From a virus, in IMG/VR virus record IMGVR_UViG_3300030521_000002, positions 1 through 64,000 of that record: a stretch of DNA of 64,000 nt; one strand, written 5' to 3'. The position numbers and the translations under genes are program-made. This document shows positions 53-9,454 of this stretch, piece by piece. The notes beneath the pieces are model-generated. The model worked only from the letters and a program-made list of their open reading frames with translations, was not told the DNA's origin and ran no database searches. Every line of letters begins with the position of its first letter. Position 1 is the first letter of the stretch.

Positions 53-292
53 TTACTCATCAGCTGAGAGCATACGAACGTGCTTGTAGTAGGCTTTTCT
101 GCTACGCATTACCCCTAAAATCTCTTGCTTTAGTGGTCGCAGCACCTTATTCAAATTGAGGATGTGGAGCTTTACAACACTGACTGAACTAGGCCCACAA
201 CAGACGTGCAGTTCCTCTTTTGCATGTAACTTACCGTCGGCCAATATCTCCAGCATCTTCGCTTGAGTTGGGGTTACGTCCATTGTTATCAC
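53..292 (-). CDS. small winged-helix DNA-binding protein (OmpR C-terminal-like)
   Basis: TPTQAKMLEIL...KEEL...VVKLHILNLNKVL pattern resembles a Trans_reg_C wHTH. Confidence 0.45.
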   Translation of the reverse strand: MITMDVTPTQAKMLEILADGKLHAKEELHVCCGPSSVSVVKLHILNLNKVLRPLKQEILGVMRSRKAYYKHVRMLSADE

Positions 293-301
293 ACTAAGCT
301 C

Positions 302-484
302 CTAGTTCACAATGCAACTAATCTTGCCTGTTATTAAAGCTACCATCATAAAAACTACTATTGCTGTAATCAAGCATCCTGGGAGCATAGGAGAATCGCC
401 TATAGGACCGCCCCAAGCCTCTAAGATTCCAACTAAAAGTAAGCATCCAGCTAAGATAGAGCCAACAATAATTAGGGGTGTCAT
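302..484 (-). CDS. small membrane protein
   Basis: two hydrophobic segments; start overlaps the upstream stop. Confidence 0.5.
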   Translation of the reverse strand: MTPLIIVGSILAGCLLLVGILEAWGGPIGDSPMLPGCLITAIVVFMMVALITGKISCIVN

Positions 485-1986
485 ACCAAACTCCTAGGAC
501 GGACTTTACTGATCTTCACACCACTGCCCCAAGCTTCCTTACTCTTACCAATCGACTGCTTAATTGCTTGTTGGATTCTAGCTCGGGTCTTCTTTTGTTG
601 GGGGTTAGATTCACCCACACCACTTGGCGTCCACGTGCATTTGCAGTGGACATGGCGTGGCAGTAATCCCCTAGCTTCGTCAATTGATAGGACAACTCCC
701 GAAAGGGAAATACACTTAGGACAGACCCTAGCTCGTTTCATTTCCGCTTCTGTGGCATTAGGCCCGGCGGCAGTCATCCACTCGACTGACACACCTACTG
801 CTTCAATTCCAAGCTGCTCAAAGGAGTCTAATTGTCCTTCACTATGCGCAGCAACAATTTCTGTTTGAGCGATGGCCAAGGCTCTGGTAATCCCAATCTT
901 ATCCACCCGGTCTACCATGTTCTTAGCCACAACCCGAGGTGAATCACCTTGGATCATCCCATCTACCAAAGTCCTGGTAATCTGCTGGTTCATCGCATCC
1001 GTCACACCCTTGAGGTCAGTGTAAGACCTGCCTATAATTGCCTTGACTCGTTGGGTCTGAACGGGCCTGCCAAAGGCGCTTCGCAAGAATTCATACCTTG
1101 ACCCTTCATAGAAACCCATCTTCTGTTTCTGGAGCTTTTCCTTGTAGCGAGTATCATCGAAAGCCCGGCTCTTCCCCTTGGCATAAGCTTCATTGATGTA
1201 CTGTCCTAGCCAAGTATCCTCGGGATTCTCTTCGCTGGTAGTTAGTACTAAAGCACTGATTCTACCTCCTAGCCATCTCCTAAACTCGCTGATCTTCTGA
1301 GGTAAAGACAGGAATCTCCAACGATCGTTGACAACTAGACCCCCACCCAACTTACTAGTCCTAAGTTTGTCCGTGGAAGAGAAGATAACTCGGTCAAATT
1401 CTAGTTCTGTTCCCTCTAGGTCATTTAGATGGAGGTACTTATCCCCACAACCAGGCTTTACATAGGCAATCGTGATATGGGGAGAGTATCCTGGTTGAGT
1501 TTGCACATGTGGTAATTCAGCAAGGCTGGCATTTAACAAACCTAGTCCTGTGCTTTCTACCTCGATCTTAACCACATCATATTCAGGATTCTTGAACAGC
1601 GAGATTTTACCTAAGCTGGCCTTGACTTTGGGATGCATGGAGATAAGGGCCTCTGCTCGCTCTCGGTCTGCATCAAAAAGCCCATAGCGGACGGTGATGT
1701 GAGGTTCATGCTCGCGGCCACGATCTGCCAAGTCCTTAGCCTTAATTTGGCTGGCCATTCGTAACACCGCTTCGCGGGCCCAGCCTCTAAGGTTGACTTG
1801 CGTGGAAGCATACTTGTACTCCTCATTGAAGATAAACCTAGGCTTCTCATTCATGCCAAACGCATCTTGGGTGACTACCAGATGGAATATCTCTTTGCGT
1901 AATTGCAAGAACCTTCTGCGCAGATCAGCACTGAACTTGCGACGGAGAAAGGTAGTTCTGGTGGGGTCCAAACGGATGGGGTTCAT
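481..1986 (-). CDS. phage head morphogenesis protein (SPP1 gp7/MuF family) with inserted 2H phosphoesterase (Acb1/gp57B-like) domain
   Basis: N-terminal DPTRT; C-terminal RALAIAQTE...EWMTA...RVCPKC...PRHVHCKC MuF signature; two HxT motifs (H96-I-T, H170-I-T) in aa ~55-213; lies downstream of the portal. Confidence 0.85.
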   Translation of the reverse strand: MNPIRLDPTRTTFLRRKFSADLRRRFLQLRKEIFHLVVTQDAFGMNEKPRFIFNEEYKYASTQVNLRGWAREAVLRMASQIKAKDLADRGREHEPHITVRYGLFDADRERAEALISMHPKVKASLGKISLFKNPEYDVVKIEVESTGLGLLNASLAELPHVQTQPGYSPHITIAYVKPGCGDKYLHLNDLEGTELEFDRVIFSSTDKLRTSKLGGGLVVNDRWRFLSLPQKISEFRRWLGGRISALVLTTSEENPEDTWLGQYINEAYAKGKSRAFDDTRYKEKLQKQKMGFYEGSRYEFLRSAFGRPVQTQRVKAIIGRSYTDLKGVTDAMNQQITRTLVDGMIQGDSPRVVAKNMVDRVDKIGITRALAIAQTEIVAAHSEGQLDSFEQLGIEAVGVSVEWMTAAGPNATEAEMKRARVCPKCISLSGVVLSIDEARGLLPRHVHCKCTWTPSGVGESNPQQKKTRARIQQAIKQSIGKSKEAWGSGVKISKVRPRSLV

Positions 1987-2201: not shown

Positions 2202-2979
2202 TTCCTCGATAGTGGATTACCCCCAACTTACCTTCGTGGTTTGTTCTCAACTGGGGAACCATTACACAGACAACCTTAAACTCATCACCCCACTGAACGA
2301 CTGTTGGAGCTAAGCCAACCACAATTCTAATTACGTCAGGGGTGAGTTGGATGAGCAAGCCCTCGTTATTCTCAAGGTACTCAGTCGAAATGTCAGCATC
2401 GGTTCTTTTGTACTTAGCAACCCAAGGAACGATCCACAAATAAGGTCCGTAGTAATGAAGCTCTTCCAATTGCTTGGGGGCGAGTAAGTTCAACTGGTGG
2501 GTTGTGATTCTCCCCGGATGGTTACAAAGCCCAGGAATCTGCATTTCCTCATTACCATAGAACAGCATTGCCTCAACAGCAGCCGCTACGCTCGCCGCAT
2601 GTTCAGCACAATCTTCGAGGTTGGTAAAGCTGCTATGGGAGATTGGTAAAGGTAGGGATTGCATTTTAAATGTGGGTACATTTGCTGGAACTTCCCCTAC
2701 CTTATCTTCAATAACAATCTCTGGCTCTAACACGATATTTGGTAGGCTTGCTACTTCCAGCGAAGTCTTTTCCATGATAGCCAAGGTAATCATCGCATGT
2801 TCTTTAAATTGCGTCTCAACAATGGCATCCATCCTTGCCCATTGCTCTTTTGTCAGTCTAGCTTTCCCCTCATAGGGCTGAGCAAGCCCACCATCATTAC
2901 TTACCCAAGACGTTCCATCGGGCATTAGGTAAGGTCGCAACTTCCAAGGTTCTTGTAATTGTTCAAGTGTTGCTGTCAT
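2191..2979 (-). CDS. shortened HK97-fold capsid/encapsulin (Linocin M18-like) protein paralogue
   Basis: motifs LRPY, LTKEQWARMD, LPLPISHSSF, IPGLCNHPGR, YYGPY, LIQLTPDVIRIVVG, VVQW, FKVVCVMVPQLR, GVIH resemble this capsid family but with internal deletions. Confidence 0.6.
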   Translation of the reverse strand: MTATLEQLQEPWKLRPYLMPDGTSWVSNDGGLAQPYEGKARLTKEQWARMDAIVETQFKEHAMITLAIMEKTSLEVASLPNIVLEPEIVIEDKVGEVPANVPTFKMQSLPLPISHSSFTNLEDCAEHAASVAAAVEAMLFYGNEEMQIPGLCNHPGRITTHQLNLLAPKQLEELHYYGPYLWIVPWVAKYKRTDADISTEYLENNEGLLIQLTPDVIRIVVGLAPTVVQWGDEFKVVCVMVPQLRTNHEGKLGVIHYRGNEG

Positions 2980-3176
2980 TCGCCTTCCTCCCCTTCATCA
3001 TCGCCTTCGTCATCATCCCAGTCATCGTTACTATCATCCTCGTCCTCATCGTCTTCTTCTATCTCAGACTCATCGTCGTCATCCCAATCGTCTTCATCTT
3101 CCATGTCCGAATCATCATCCTCAGATCGGATGGGGTTATACTGCTTCGGTGGTGCTGGACGTAATGACCTGCTCAT
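2976..3176 (-). CDS. small highly acidic protein
   Basis: D/E-rich ORF with an AGGAG RBS; start/stop overlap with the next gene. Confidence 0.55.
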   Translation of the reverse strand: MSRSLRPAPPKQYNPIRSEDDDSDMEDEDDWDDDDESEIEEDDEDEDDSNDDWDDDEGDDEGEEGE

Positions 3177-3184
3177 AAAGGCTC

Positions 3185-6100
3185 CTAATGAGAATGATTC
3201 AAACCAAAACGATGATTAGCTAAACCTCCGATTGCGCCGTGCTTCCTAGCCAGTGTTGCAGTATAGATAGGTCTGGGAATTACTTGTCTGTCATTGTTAA
3301 TCATGGCTTGGATCAGAGGTTCAGCTAAGTCTTGCACCCTAGGGTCTATTGTAGCATGATTGGTAACGATCGAGTCGTTTCTCGTATAAGCAGAAACAAC
3401 AGAGTCGATTGCATGTTCAACTGCCTTTCTGCCAATATGCTTAGCGGTCGCCTTACCTACATCACCCACCACGCCTAGAGCTTGGCGAGCCACTTTCATA
3501 ATGCGACCCCCCTTCTTGCCTTCCACATGACTACCATCGCTCGTGCCGTGAATCTCGGCCTTGTTATTCTTGGCCCAACGATCCAAGGATTCCTTGTTCT
3601 TAAACTTGAGGCGGAAGGGTTTCTTAGCATCCCCTTGCGTACCATGTGCTTCGATATGTTGGGGAGTAGAACCTTTGCCACCGGACCTAGAGCGAATGCT
3701 ACGAGCGGCGGAACCTAAAATCGTATGGGCTAATTTCTTATGTTGTGACTTTAGGTGTCTTTCTTCCTTACTTTGCCCCTTACCCGTATCGAGCGGCTCG
3801 GTGAGGATCGCTTTGGCATGGCCTTTGAGCTTTTGGGCAAACTCCCCGAGCTTTTGCCTACGGAGGTCTTTGTGGGCTTGCTTTTCGCTGGCCTTAGCTT
3901 TGGCAGCGTGTTCAGGGTAGCGTTGATAAAATCGAGAACCACCGTCAGACGATCCTGAACTGCCGCCACCCTTATTAGCAAACTTACCATGATCTCTTGG
4001 ATGCTTCGATTCTTCAAAGGCATTTCTACTAATAGGGAATCCGTTTTGGGGCGGGAGTTCTTCTTCATCTTGTTCGTCGCCATAAACTCCTTGGCCCTCT
4101 TCAGGATTACCTTGTCCAAAACCTCCCAATCCTCCAGCATCTTCTTCTTCACCTGGTTGTCCACTGCCATCGCCCGTTCCATCGTCATAGATTGGTTGGC
4201 CATTTTCATCGAATCCTTGCAGTTGAGGGTCTTCCGGCCCATGTCCAGGCACTAGCTCATCCATGCCCACATCCGGGTTTACTTCCATCATATGCGATTG
4301 GGCACCTTCGAGAATCGCGGTGGCCTCGTCTTCCGTGAAGTCTAGTTCCCTAGTGAGTAAGTCAGTGGGGCTCATCAACACATCAATGCCACCACTGACA
4401 TATTGAGCCATGACTCCCATTCTCGCCGTAGCCACTTGTGCCTTCTGGAGTGAGCCTAATGCTTCGATATCTTCCCATTGTACCTTGTAGCTCACAGGTT
4501 GGGGCAACACACCCATTGCAATCAAGCGGTCCACAAAGGGGACGATGATCCTAGGAGTCAGGTACATCTTCTGTCGTTCTCTAACCCGCTTCTTCCAGGT
4601 CTCACTATCTTGAGAAGAGGCTAGTTCAGCTTGCTCACTCCCCATGAAGATACGCTTGGGGACATTGATCGTAATACAGATAGCAGTAATCTGTACATCA
4701 ATCTGCAAAGAGGGGTCACTCACCTGCGGAGCTAGTTGATTAGCCGATAGCCCCTCCGTAGCAATATGCCGTTGCAAGCTATTACGATACCTCTCCATCG
4801 CCTTCTCAAGTGCATCATAGTCAATCGTGATATCACTACCCAATTCAGGGTGAGTTTCCCACGAGATACCCATGAAAGCAGCCATCCAGAACATCTCAGC
4901 ACTACCGCCATACAGCTTCTTGAGGTCGAGTAGGCGATTGAAGACCGGACGTTGAGCAGGCACCCCGATAATCTCACTGCTATTGACGTTATCACTGCTA
5001 TTGGTAAGGTGGATTACTCTGGACCAATGCACTTGCTCGGTCGTGTTCCTAACCCCAATCCCAGGATGACTGTCTTGAGGGTCTACAAATGTGACCTGGT
5101 ACATCAACGGTTGCCCATACCGTGGATTGTTGGGGTCACGTTCGTATTGCAGGATGTTGACTAAGGACTCGTCGAAGGCCCTGAGGTAGAGCAGCTTATA
5201 CTTAGTCTCGACATGCGTTGGTTGTCCAAATTCATCCAAGTTTTTATTTCCAGATTCTTCTGCTGATCTTTCCGGGTCAAGATAGTCGGACCCACCCTGA
5301 ATCTCTTCTCCGTCTGCGCCCTCAACCTCTGGGCCGACTGGTTCTTCTGTTTCGAGGTTGACATCTTCCAATGATCCTCCATAGTTAGGCTCGATTGGTA
5401 AATCTTGTTGATCCTGCTCATCCCCTACGTTTGGGTCATTTTGCCCTAGTCTTTCCCACTCTTCATCATCCATTCCAGGCGGCTTACCGTTAACAGGAAC
5501 ATCATCCTCCTCATTGTTAGCGTCGAAGTTATACGCCATCTGCTCTTTGCGGTCCTGGCGTTGCTTATCCAACATCTCAGGAGTAAGTTCCTTGTCTGGC
5601 GGAGAATTGAGCTTATCCAGCTTCTCAGCACCACCAGGAGTTAGTAAGGGATCATCACTTTGCGAAAGACTCGTCTCTGCCGGATAATCACCTTCACCAG
5701 AACCATACTCTGGCTTAAGCTTGGGGAAACCTTTCTCAAAGCCCTCCACAGCCTCTCGGAGGGGCTTACCATCGTCGATACCCATCAGTAAAATACCAAA
5801 GCTCCCAATCCTGGTAAGAATATCCGCTCGTCTGAGATACTCCCAAATCGGGTTGCCTTCCTCATCCTCATGCCAACTCTCACCCTTAAGGGACATTCCT
5901 ACTTGATCGAAGGCCAGCTCAAAGGGAGTCTCTACCTCTGCATCATCATCTTCCGTAATGCTGACATTAGATTGCCAACACTCCTTGGGCCAGATTTCCA
6001 CAACCCGCGTAGCAATCCCCTCGCGGTCATACATCTGCCGATAGTCTTGGGAAGAGATTTCAGTAGTTTCTGGATAACCACACTCTTGGTCAATATCTCG

Positions 6101-6232
6101 ACGGTTATCAGTACCAGCAGAGACTTGCCGTCTAGTGAGTGTGGCATTATTCACTAGATCAACCATCTTGCGCATTTGATTCAACACAATAGGATCACGA
6201 CCATCCGGGTAACTAACCATTCCTGTTGCCAT
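3185..6232 (-). CDS. portal protein (DUF1073-like) with acidic insertion and long C-terminal extension
   Basis: YDREGIATRVVE, RYGQPLMY, VHWSRVIH, NRLLDLKKLYGGSAEMFW, PKRIFMGSE...LASSQD motifs; follows TerL. Confidence 0.85.
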   Translation of the reverse strand: MATGMVSYPDGRDPIVLNQMRKMVDLVNNATLTRRQVSAGTDNRRDIDQECGYPETTEISSQDYRQMYDREGIATRVVEIWPKECWQSNVSITEDDDAEVETPFELAFDQVGMSLKGESWHEDEEGNPIWEYLRRADILTRIGSFGILLMGIDDGKPLREAVEGFEKGFPKLKPEYGSGEGDYPAETSLSQSDDPLLTPGGAEKLDKLNSPPDKELTPEMLDKQRQDRKEQMAYNFDANNEEDDVPVNGKPPGMDDEEWERLGQNDPNVGDEQDQQDLPIEPNYGGSLEDVNLETEEPVGPEVEGADGEEIQGGSDYLDPERSAEESGNKNLDEFGQPTHVETKYKLLYLRAFDESLVNILQYERDPNNPRYGQPLMYQVTFVDPQDSHPGIGVRNTTEQVHWSRVIHLTNSSDNVNSSEIIGVPAQRPVFNRLLDLKKLYGGSAEMFWMAAFMGISWETHPELGSDITIDYDALEKAMERYRNSLQRHIATEGLSANQLAPQVSDPSLQIDVQITAICITINVPKRIFMGSEQAELASSQDSETWKKRVRERQKMYLTPRIIVPFVDRLIAMGVLPQPVSYKVQWEDIEALGSLQKAQVATARMGVMAQYVSGGIDVLMSPTDLLTRELDFTEDEATAILEGAQSHMMEVNPDVGMDELVPGHGPEDPQLQGFDENGQPIYDDGTGDGSGQPGEEEDAGGLGGFGQGNPEEGQGVYGDEQDEEELPPQNGFPISRNAFEESKHPRDHGKFANKGGGSSGSSDGGSRFYQRYPEHAAKAKASEKQAHKDLRRQKLGEFAQKLKGHAKAILTEPLDTGKGQSKEERHLKSQHKKLAHTILGSAARSIRSRSGGKGSTPQHIEAHGTQGDAKKPFRLKFKNKESLDRWAKNNKAEIHGTSDGSHVEGKKGGRIMKVARQALGVVGDVGKATAKHIGRKAVEHAIDSVVSAYTRNDSIVTNHATIDPRVQDLAEPLIQAMINNDRQVIPRPIYTATLARKHGAIGGLANHRFGLNHSH

Positions 6233-7864: not shown

Positions 7865-9454
7865 TCATGCTGCGCCTAACACTTTCTTAATAGGCTTGTT
7901 GAAGAAACCATAGACTGCCAATACCAGACTATCCGCCTCATCCGGGGAACAGCCTAGTATTTCTTGGAGGGTAATCTCCTCACTGTCCTTATTCTTCTTG
8001 GTCTTAGGGGGCAAGTATAACCTACCCTCCGCATCATACAATAAAGGCATTAGAGAGAGTTGCCTTCTGAGTTCACTATACTCTGCTGGAATACCGAAAC
8101 CCCCTCGCTTCCATTGAGATTGCTCATCTAGCTCTTGCAAGGTTGGGTCAAGCAGGTTGAACCTCAATAGCCCATACATCTCTGCCCTACGATTCTTGTA
8201 GGTATACTTCTCCTCTCGTTCCTCCCTGCGCTCATTCCTAGTCGCCTTACGATTGGCTTGTTCAGGAATGTGGTTCGTAGCCGGTTCTCCAAAGCCCACC
8301 GTCCTTACATTATAGCCTCGCTTACGCAGTGCATCGGCGTGTTGCTTACCACCTCCCCCACGGTCAAAGATCACATTCTCTGGTAAGAGGTTAAACTCTC
8401 TAATCAGCCCGATGGTAATGTTAGGAATCACGGAAGTATCAGGGGTGCTCATTACCACCATCTTCATAATCCCTTTCTCATCCATGATGCACCAGGCTGT
8501 ATCGTCTCCACCCTCTCCCGTATCAATGCCCATCGTCTTAGCAATACGCTTGCGAGAGATACTCATGTACTCCCGTTCTACCTTGTCAGCAATCTCTTCG
8601 GCCCTATTCAACCATTCTGGAGGATACAAGAAGAATTCAGCACTTTCACAAAACTCAGCGTCAAGCCCTACCATCTGCTGGGGTTTGGTCCAGAGCTTTC
8701 TACGCTTGAGATACGTGGGCCAATCCACCACACCGGGTACGAGCGTTGCGCCAGTCGGCTTGATCCCCTTGTGTTGTTGAGTCAGGGCCAGCCTCACATT
8801 AGGGCTATCCTCGGCCTTAATTTTGATGATCTTACGATGGAAGCCTGGTCCATCATCCCGCTTAATATCCCCACCCTTCACGCCACGATAAAAGAAGTTC
8901 GTACAAGGCAGACAATTACCGATCACCAAAGTACGATGTGCCCATGTTTCACTAGCAGTCTTGTATTGATCCTTAATCGAACTGGCCTCATCGAAAACGG
9001 CCAGTGTTCTAGGCAGGAAGTCCCTACCGCGTTCCAAGTGATGGCCCTGCATCGTCTCGACCACATTCGTCACAATCCCATGAATGTAGCTCCTCGCCTC
9101 AAACCCACTATTCGTGAGTTGCTTACCCATCATGTCAGAGGGTGTGACATAGATCGGGAGATTATACCTGCTAGTCTGTAATAACCTCCGCATCTCACCC
9201 CACAGCACATCCTTGAGTTGAGTTTCACTAGAACTACTCGGCACAATTCGGCAGGGGCTACGTGATGAGAAGAACCACAGGCAACCTACTGCTGTGATAT
9301 AGTCCTTACCGAGTTGATTCCCAGCAGGTACGATCGTCTCGTCATTGTCCCTGAGTGAGAGTAGAATCTCAGCTTGCTTATCGTAGATCACACTATCAGG
9401 CCAGCAGAGCTTGATAAATCGCAGGGGGTCTAGCAATAGCTCGTGGAGGTTCAT
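7865..9454 (-). CDS. terL: terminase large subunit
   Basis: Walker A AGNQLGKD, Walker B VFDEAS, nuclease motifs MGIDTGEGGDDT and SPDEADSLVLA. Confidence 0.92.
   Translation of the reverse strand: MNLHELLLDPLRFIKLCWPDSVIYDKQAEILLSLRDNDETIVPAGNQLGKDYITAVGCLWFFSSRSPCRIVPSSSSETQLKDVLWGEMRRLLQTSRYNLPIYVTPSDMMGKQLTNSGFEARSYIHGIVTNVVETMQGHHLERGRDFLPRTLAVFDEASSIKDQYKTASETWAHRTLVIGNCLPCTNFFYRGVKGGDIKRDDGPGFHRKIIKIKAEDSPNVRLALTQQHKGIKPTGATLVPGVVDWPTYLKRRKLWTKPQQMVGLDAEFCESAEFFLYPPEWLNRAEEIADKVEREYMSISRKRIAKTMGIDTGEGGDDTAWCIMDEKGIMKMVVMSTPDTSVIPNITIGLIREFNLLPENVIFDRGGGGKQHADALRKRGYNVRTVGFGEPATNHIPEQANRKATRNERREEREEKYTYKNRRAEMYGLLRFNLLDPTLQELDEQSQWKRGGFGIPAEYSELRRQLSLMPLLYDAEGRLYLPPKTKKNKDSEEITLQEILGCSPDEADSLVLAVYGFFNKPIKKVLGAA

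Follow-up and report, generated by a model that had tools for sequence, protein, structure and literature searches.

A phage MuF head morphogenesis protein with an internal 2H phosphoesterase domain in a variable N-proximal slot

The DNA analysed here is a stretch of 64,000 nucleotides (the window), covering positions 1 to 64,000 of the IMG/VR virus record IMGVR_UViG_3300030521_000002, which belongs to an uncultured phage. Close to its left end, the minus strand encodes a head morphogenesis protein of the MuF/SPP1 gp7 type, 501 amino acids (aa) long, in which the N-terminal MuF segment and the MuF core are set apart by a 2H phosphoesterase domain. MuF proteins are low-copy, portal-associated components of the virion, with SPP1 gp7 as the type case. 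The gene and its parts are arranged as follows.

481..1986, minus strand: MuF/SPP1 gp7-like head morphogenesis protein (P0001) with internal 2H domain, 501 aa (open reading frame (ORF) and family matches)
1849..1986, minus strand: MuF N-terminal segment, aa 1-46, with a helix at aa 12-39 and the motif DPTRTxxLRRxF (homologous to insert-free MuF N-termini)
1339..1818, minus strand: inserted 2H phosphoesterase domain, aa 57-216, folded part aa 60-205 (Pfam, profile search, model)
1693..1701, minus strand: first HxT motif, H96-I97-T98 (read in the translation)
1471..1479, minus strand: second HxT motif, H170-I171-T172, within Y-x-P-H-x-T-x-A-Y (read in the translation)
1327..1353, minus strand: low-confidence linker leading back into the MuF core, aa 212-220, with a counterpart on the opposite side at aa 51-57 (model)
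529..1326, minus strand: MuF core, aa 221-486 (Pfam, PHROG, model)

Judged by model score and full-length homology, the product of 481..1986 is a full member of the MuF family. On the whole protein, PF04233 (Phage_Mu_F) matches aa 334-452 with 35.1 bits at a cut-off of 29.6, and the profile of PHROG 758, 'head morphogenesis', extends over aa 216-486 (profile positions 67-322 of 326, E 2.6e-34). A search of 5.8 billion proteins returned 85 homologues of the 501-aa protein, most of them annotated or typed as MuF. No solved structure was found for the MuF core: phmmer with the whole protein found zero matches among PDB sequences, and Foldseek with the full-length model gave 2H matches only (E<=0.001). 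Within the core, a CxxC...CxC cluster formed by C422/C425/C448/C450 (637-723, minus strand) is invariant across eight orthologues and looks like a zinc-binding site. Inteins (PF14890) occur inside the MuF core of the homologues P0005, P0036, P0054, P0070 and L067:6189-10163, at sites equivalent to ~aa 378-382 or ~aa 447.

The first-pass annotation of this DNA had proposed that the 2H domain splits the N-terminus of the MuF protein from its core, and the comparison with insert-free relatives bears this out. In BLAST, MuF homologues of ~300 aa (e.g. P0035, P0033 and P0027) match aa 1-59 and aa 217-500 of the query. Since the insert-free MuF pieces aligned on either side abut, aa ~57-216 interrupts the MuF protein. 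The 2H domain is a true insertion, and the first ~55 residues are the MuF N-terminus.

Structure prediction offers a more detailed view of how the two parts are combined. The full-length AlphaFold model, computed from 53 sequences, has a mean predicted local distance difference test (pLDDT) of 87.9 and a predicted template modelling score (pTM) of 0.71. An N-terminal helix (aa 12-39) is modelled with confidence, then comes the 2H domain (aa 60-205), and from aa 228 onward the chain forms the helical MuF core; pLDDT falls below 50 only in the two linkers, aa 51-57 and 212-220. When aa 1-50 and aa 221-501 were folded as two separate chains, residues 6-46 were predicted to lie along core helices 231-274 and 336-381, with a score of 0.81 against 0.00 for the best of three controls. 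A score of this height was reached by 58 of 80 solved complexes and by 2 of 110 mismatched pairs, counts that are approximate here, our own alignment having been used. Contacts agreed between runs by at least 93%, and partner pLDDT was at least 77. Both chains being parts of one polypeptide, the predicted docking of the N-terminal helix is therefore to be read as intramolecular packing. These models speak for a MuF fold complete in itself, with the enzyme suspended from one of its surface loops.

The inserted domain has the motifs and the fold of a 2H phosphoesterase. The paired HxT motifs described in the first-pass annotation are present, as EPHITVRYG at aa 94-102 (1707-1681) and YSPHITIAY at aa 167-175; the span of 1327-1824 given for the domain corresponds to aa 55-220. 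PF13563 (2_5_RNA_ligase2), with a cut-off of 27, matches aa 80-177 of the whole protein with 36 bits (E 9e-9) and the isolated domain with 38.8 bits (E 1.2e-9). LigT_PEase remains below its cut-off with 20.9 bits on the whole protein, and a match to PHROG 755, 'RNA ligase', covers aa 88-178. The AlphaFold model of aa 57-216 reaches a pLDDT of 94.2. The domain is thus a complete 2H phosphoesterase with both motifs and the fold intact, and the match lies far beyond chance. Neither HxT motif varies among 18 stand-alone relatives (alignment A1) or among eight MuF-2H orthologues, the latter sharing only 37-46% identity. Such invariance in eight distant orthologues places catalysis under selection, and the inserted phosphodiesterase is apparently active.

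The relatives of the domain place it in a specific branch of the superfamily. HMMER with aa 57-216 found 4,706 homologues (E<=1e-3) among 1.84 billion representatives. The closest of them, at 45-53% identity, are mostly domains within proteins of 1,000-5,700 aa, together with stand-alone proteins of 170-260 aa. Listed representatives, the 2H domains of the MuF homologue set and those of the viral loci were gathered into a set of 175 domains; 94 come from proteins 1,000 aa or more in length, 20 make up a solo protein and 11 belong to MuF proteins. The best fold match in BFVD is likewise a piece of a giant protein, from an uncultured phage (TMq 0.89, 32% identity). The same library also lists 2H fusions to head proteins from two cultured phages, Microbacterium phage OneinaGillian ('capsid morphogenesis protein', 1050 aa) and Gordonia phage GMA2 ('structural protein', 883 aa). 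By these neighbours, the inserted domain belongs to the 2H clade of phage 'polyvalent' proteins of Iyer et al. 2017. In a FastTree phylogeny of the 175 domains, the MuF-inserted members are not monophyletic: there is a clade of six (support 0.93), one pair and three singletons, the 501-aa protein among the latter; the tree has no outgroup and very long branches, and allows no firm inference on repeated acquisition. One relative with 30.6% identity comes from a cultured phage, Tunturiibacter phage Tunturi_5 (PP885688.1, 309 kb), where it lies at 262950-263420 under a gene annotated as MutT/NUDIX hydrolase, which suggests a 2H-Nudix fusion at that locus.

The MuF-2H gene lies in the head module, near the portal gene. 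Three further genes of this module in the window serve as landmarks.

53..292, minus strand: 79-aa ORF (orf79), next after MuF, in the same place in 7 of 9 related phages
3185..6232, minus strand: portal protein, 1015 aa, upstream in the head module (Pfam, PHROG, synteny)
7865..9454, minus strand: large terminase subunit, terL (PHROG, synteny)

The gene order at this locus is terL-portal-(three small genes)-MuF-orf79, followed across the record ends by DUF2213-decoration-major capsid protein (MCP). The right end of the record (64001-75293, L002) encodes DUF2213 (419 aa), a 299-aa protein, a lambda-D-like decoration protein and a DUF6260/HK97 MCP. Nine IMG/VR relatives share the order terL-portal-MuF-orf79-DUF2213-(299-aa protein)-decoration-MCP as far as their loci reach: L016 begins within the portal gene, L025 stops after orf79, and orf79 was not detected in L012 and L051. 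These relatives were found by an alignment-based scan of viral contigs, a single-protein scan having given none, and their MCPs, where present, are 47-56% identical to the one here. Because the relatives carry these head genes contiguously, the two record ends can be joined; judging from gene order, the record (75,293 bp, CheckV completeness 100%) is a circular permutation of a complete genome, with contiguous ends.

Some features of the surrounding genes are recorded here in their own right. Between portal and MuF, the minus strand encodes a 262-aa HK97/encapsulin-like protein (2191-2979), an extremely acidic 66-aa protein (2976-3176) and a 72-aa ORF (1983-2201), the TGA of which overlaps the ATG of the MuF-2H gene as ATGA. 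Wherever the locus of a relative includes both portal and MuF, MuF comes next after the portal, without counterparts of these three genes in between. The 262-aa protein reaches 22.3 bits with Linocin_M18, below the cut-off, and matches the relatives only at their true major capsid gene, a separate copy being found in none of the nine; it looks like a shortened MCP paralogue. The 1015-aa portal protein has its Pfam core only at aa 344-605, preceded by a long acidic N-terminal region and followed by a Gly/Lys/Ser-rich C-terminal extension of ~370 aa with no family match, and these extensions could be further capsid-internal cargo. Among the late genes, a 274-aa protein (L002:3127-3948, minus strand) has a thioredoxin domain at aa 149-248. 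No tRNA genes were found in the 64-kb window.

The site of insertion is used in very different ways across the MuF homologues. A survey of homologues with and without the insert had been suggested together with the first-pass annotation; the comparison here covers the 80 homologues that have both the N-terminal helix and the core. The spacing between the two is at most 40 aa (no insert) in 54 of them, 40-100 aa in 6 and more than 100 aa in 20, a sample biased to 2H-bearing proteins, as the query itself contains 2H. C-terminal extensions of more than 100 aa are present in about 30 of these homologues. The identifiable contents of the slot in other homologues include the following.

P0019 and P0080: ART-PolyVal
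P0021 and L023: ADPrib_exo_Tox
L067: InPase, an inorganic pyrophosphatase of polyvalent type
L025/L026, 1347-aa protein: an array with the N-helix at 38-84, ART-PolyVal at 287-412, 2H at 428-505, ADPrib_exo_Tox at 829-952 and the MuF core at 1047-1346
L027: Peptidase_C39 and ART-PolyVal ahead of the core, and a further ART behind the core

Collinear relatives also differ at this position: the slot holds 2H in L004, is empty in L012, L016, L047 and L058, carries other inserts in L005 and L034, and an array in L025. Arms-race cargo would be expected to leave a pattern of this kind: a conserved head module in which one internal segment can be exchanged. As a separate observation, the 1236-aa MuF protein at L028:5994-9701 has a 609-aa insert without family match in the N-proximal slot, and a PI3_PI4_kinase-like domain (33.8 bits) past its core, at aa 1097-1166.

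We propose that the 501-aa protein is a phosphodiesterase tethered to MuF and loaded into the capsid, delivered along with the DNA to hydrolyse the second messengers of defence systems. We assign this reading a probability of roughly 45%; its packaging, delivery and substrate are what we infer. The 2H phosphodiesterase sits on flexible linkers in the loop between the first MuF helix and the remaining bundle, and the MuF scaffold would take it into the procapsid, in few copies per virion. It would then enter the host cytoplasm together with the DNA or shortly after, and may hydrolyse the nucleotide second messengers of abortive-infection or other defence systems ahead of phage gene expression. 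Candidate substrates are the cyclic di- and trinucleotides of the cyclic-oligonucleotide-based signalling system against phages (CBASS), the cyclic oligoadenylates of type III CRISPR (clustered regularly interspaced short palindromic repeats) systems and 2'-5'-linked oligonucleotides, and the enzyme would be functionally analogous to T4 Acb1. Viruses have repeatedly taken on LigT-like phosphodiesterases (PDEs) that break down immune nucleotides, with substrates that vary by lineage (Nomburg et al. 2024, PMC11410667). An anti-defence enzyme in the head had already been suggested by the first-pass annotation, and its interpretation is partly supported: the 2H domain is intact and lies within a MuF protein, and the gene is in the head module. 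The Acb1 identity attached to it is not supported as it was stated.

How close the domain comes to Acb1 depends on whether sequence profiles or folds are compared. The profile of the 18 stand-alone members (A1), searched against PDB sequences, places Acb1 first (9q2g, E 7.2e-6; 9q2y, 2.7e-4; 7t26, 7.3e-4), followed by Arabidopsis CPDase (1.6e-3) and B. subtilis YjcG (4.5e-3). In hhalign, A1 aligns with T4 Acb1 over 54 columns at a probability of 78% (E 1.8e-5), the Y-T-P-H-I-T-L-S-Y of the latter falling on Y-S-P-H-I-T-I-A-Y of the inserted domain. The same comparison with E. coli ThpR/LigT gives an insignificant 1.2%, and sequence-profile kinship to bacterial LigT was not found. In FBB1 Acb1, the residues Y12, W74, F107 and W147 stack the bases, and residues 145-152 form a closing lid (PMC9117128). 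On the assumption that FBB1 numbering tracks that of T4, the hhalign alignment puts T4 Acb1 W74 on a family-invariant Phe, F131 of the 501-aa protein. The curated Acb1 family PF23474 is matched by 17 of the 18 stand-alone relatives at E<=0.01 (best 3.9e-9), and PF13563 by all 18 (best 2.5e-16).

The fold comparison points elsewhere, ranking LigT-like proteins and Usb1 higher. Foldseek, run with the domain model, puts Usb1 at the head of the list (6d2z, E 1.5e-6, TMq 0.73), plant CPDase having a TMq of 0.75, BCSR5 Acb1 standing at rank 22 and FBB1 Acb1 at rank 34; in the viral structure library (BFVD), Acb1 of phage PaBG stands at rank 15. The highest structural Z values, 16.3-15.3, belong to LigT-like or CPDase proteins, and Z gaps of 1-3 among 2H subfamilies mostly follow chain length. 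On the sequence-profile evidence, the inserted domain would be a sister group of Acb1 inside the 2H superfamily. The earlier label 'Acb1-like' fits in a loose sense, as the nearest solved relatives by sequence profile are Acb1 proteins; by the curated Pfam threshold the domain is not a member, and its nearest sequences are polyvalent 2H domains rather than stand-alone Acb1.

Several of these and other observations weigh against a packaged enzyme that destroys second messengers. With PF23474, the whole protein scores 14.3 bits and the isolated inserted domain 18.2 bits, at a cut-off of 27. The position aligned to Acb1 F107 is non-aromatic in the 501-aa protein, again taking FBB1 and T4 numbering as equal and with the N-terminal strand and the lid lying outside the alignment. 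The C-terminal lid of Acb1 with W147 has no obvious counterpart here, because the C-terminus of the domain runs on into the linker. The fold equals or favours LigT-like proteins, Usb1 and plant CPDase over Acb1, and a LigT-like fold is in any case no predictor of substrate (PMC11410667). A scan of genome contigs gave 2H-only matches, in metagenome-assembled genomes of Pirellulales, Desulfocapsaceae and Bacteriovoracaceae, and hence neither a host nor its CBASS or type III CRISPR repertoire. Our literature search found no virion proteomics or enzymology of any 2H-MuF protein, no usable virion proteomics for actinophage 2H-head fusions, no paper testing a 2H-MuF protein and none linking Acb1 to MuF. 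Ejection of MuF proteins into the cell is, moreover, generally assumed more than demonstrated.

The same enzyme, packaged, might instead act on RNA. It could be a 3'-5' exoribonuclease or RNase like Usb1 that targets host or defence RNAs, or a 2',3'-cyclic phosphodiesterase that heals RNA ends left by the cuts of host anticodon nucleases or of further metal-independent RNases. Usb1 (6d2z) as the top Foldseek match and the lead of LigT-like and CPDase proteins in structural Z are in line with such a role, as is the text of Iyer et al. 2017 (PMC5512222), which, on the analogy of the PBECR RNase domains seen in fusions with MuF or portal, puts a Usb1-like RNase first and degradation of 2'-5' oligoadenylate or other counter-invader nucleotides second. 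The sequence profiles, however, favour Acb1, with the match to LigT/ThpR insignificant. A repair pathway would also need a ligase for its completion, but neither the Rnl2-type RNA ligase (PF09414) nor RtcB (PF01139) has a match in the 75,293-bp record, which argues against classical RNA repair; a search with PF09511 (T4 Rnl1) was uninformative, as the control genomes gave no signal. The lack of an RNA ligase partner fits the statement in the text of Iyer et al. 2017 that the polyvalent 2H clade never associates with RNA ligases. Altogether, we consider an RNA substrate rather unlikely, though more probable than the two explanations that follow.

Two further explanations concern the chemistry and the place of action. 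The domain might belong to a conflict network around NAD+ and ADP-ribose, hydrolysing ADP-ribose 1'',2''-cyclic phosphate or signals of the cyclic ADP-ribose type (Thoeris-like), possibly together with the ADP-ribosyltransferases (ARTs) co-packaged in relatives. The 501-aa protein itself, however, lacks an ART domain, its match to plant CPDase in sequence is weaker than that to Acb1, and we know of no 2H enzyme that cleaves Thoeris signals; we regard this option as quite improbable. It is also conceivable that the enzyme is not delivered at all and works only in the producing cell or procapsid, for instance late near assembling heads, in line with the alternative raised by the first-pass annotation, or that it is a structural passenger. 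That packaging and ejection of the 501-aa protein are things we infer, and that the MuF core alone suffices in 54 of the 80 homologues, would agree with this. Invariant HxT motifs in distant orthologues nevertheless speak against a passive passenger, covalent attachment to a head protein would be superfluous for an enzyme expressed freely, and the slot of relatives holds classic injected-effector domains, namely ADP-ribosyltransferases like T4 Alt. An enzyme confined to the producing cell therefore appears very unlikely to us.

The preferred reading of a capsid-loaded phosphodiesterase against defence messengers can be widened to the slot as a whole. Tentatively, and with the odds somewhat against it, the loop behind the first helix in this MuF clade may be a dedicated plug-in slot for capsid-delivered effectors, either single enzymes or polyvalent arrays, that are swapped between collinear phages. 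The 2H module in it would then be a pre-made injected enzyme destroying cyclic-oligonucleotide or other nucleotide alarms before phage gene expression.

Much of this picture has been anticipated in print. SPP1 gp7 and Mu F are described in the text of Iyer et al. 2017 (PMC5512222) as portal-associated head components, and the same text reports 2H domains within polyvalent proteins, as phage proteins on their own and in fusions with MuF or portal (Fig. 5B). The text of Iyer et al. 2022 (PMC9503650) considers packaging and injection of such fusions probable, as a counter to SMODS, cyclic-mononucleotide and CRISPR signalling. The protein described here agrees with the 2H class of these texts in its polyvalent domain clade, the fusion to MuF, the lack of an RNA ligase partner, the late head genes around it and the proposed injected role. 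The 2H-MuF fusion and its proposed role were therefore already predicted in 2017 and 2022, and the locus is a well-preserved, ordinary member of the predicted class. The 2017 and 2022 texts, to which this comparison is confined, speak of 'fusions' and C-terminal effectors, whereas the domain here is internal, between the N-terminal MuF helix and the core, in a slot that is general and variable in content.

A similar distinction applies to other head-borne effectors. Jamet et al. 2017 (PMC5576092) and later papers on MuF toxins describe cargo only at the C-terminus, with immunity genes paired in prophages. MuF polymorphic toxins and effector fusions, as well as T4 Alt, share with the 501-aa protein the character of a variable, head-borne enzyme presumed to be carried by the capsid. 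Unlike MuF polymorphic toxins, the cargo here occupies an N-proximal internal loop, is a hydrolase rather than a toxin and has no evident immunity gene. T4 Acb1 (gp57B) and its FBB1 and BCSR5 homologues (PMC9117128; PDB 7t26, 7t27, 9q2g, 9q2y) are free-standing proteins of ~150 aa that are not known to be packaged, whereas the 2H domain here is tethered in a head protein, has no free C-terminal lid, lies below the Acb1 cut-off and has a predicted activity. The cyclic GMP-AMP (cGAMP) PDE of avian poxvirus (9bkq/9ciw) and the 2'-5' PDEs of coronavirus NS2 and rotavirus VP3 (PMC11410667) share 9-14% identity with it, belong to viruses of other hosts and are not virion-tethered.

What the present locus adds is modest and lies in topology: a cargo loop inside the MuF protein, directly after its first helix, that is widely used, variable and able to hold polyvalent arrays. 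It contributes one more instance and a detail of topology; the principle itself is not new. For genome surveys, it supplies a rule: candidate capsid-delivered effectors are to be sought in whatever separates the N-terminal helix of MuF from its core. Should the enzyme be packaged and injected, it would be at work before CBASS, type III CRISPR or Thoeris-like signalling can fire. Known signal degraders such as Acb1 are, as far as has been shown, made only after the onset of infection, and an injected enzyme would represent a different strategy of timing. If true, this would be a mode of delivery for Acb1-type counter-defence that has never yet been demonstrated.

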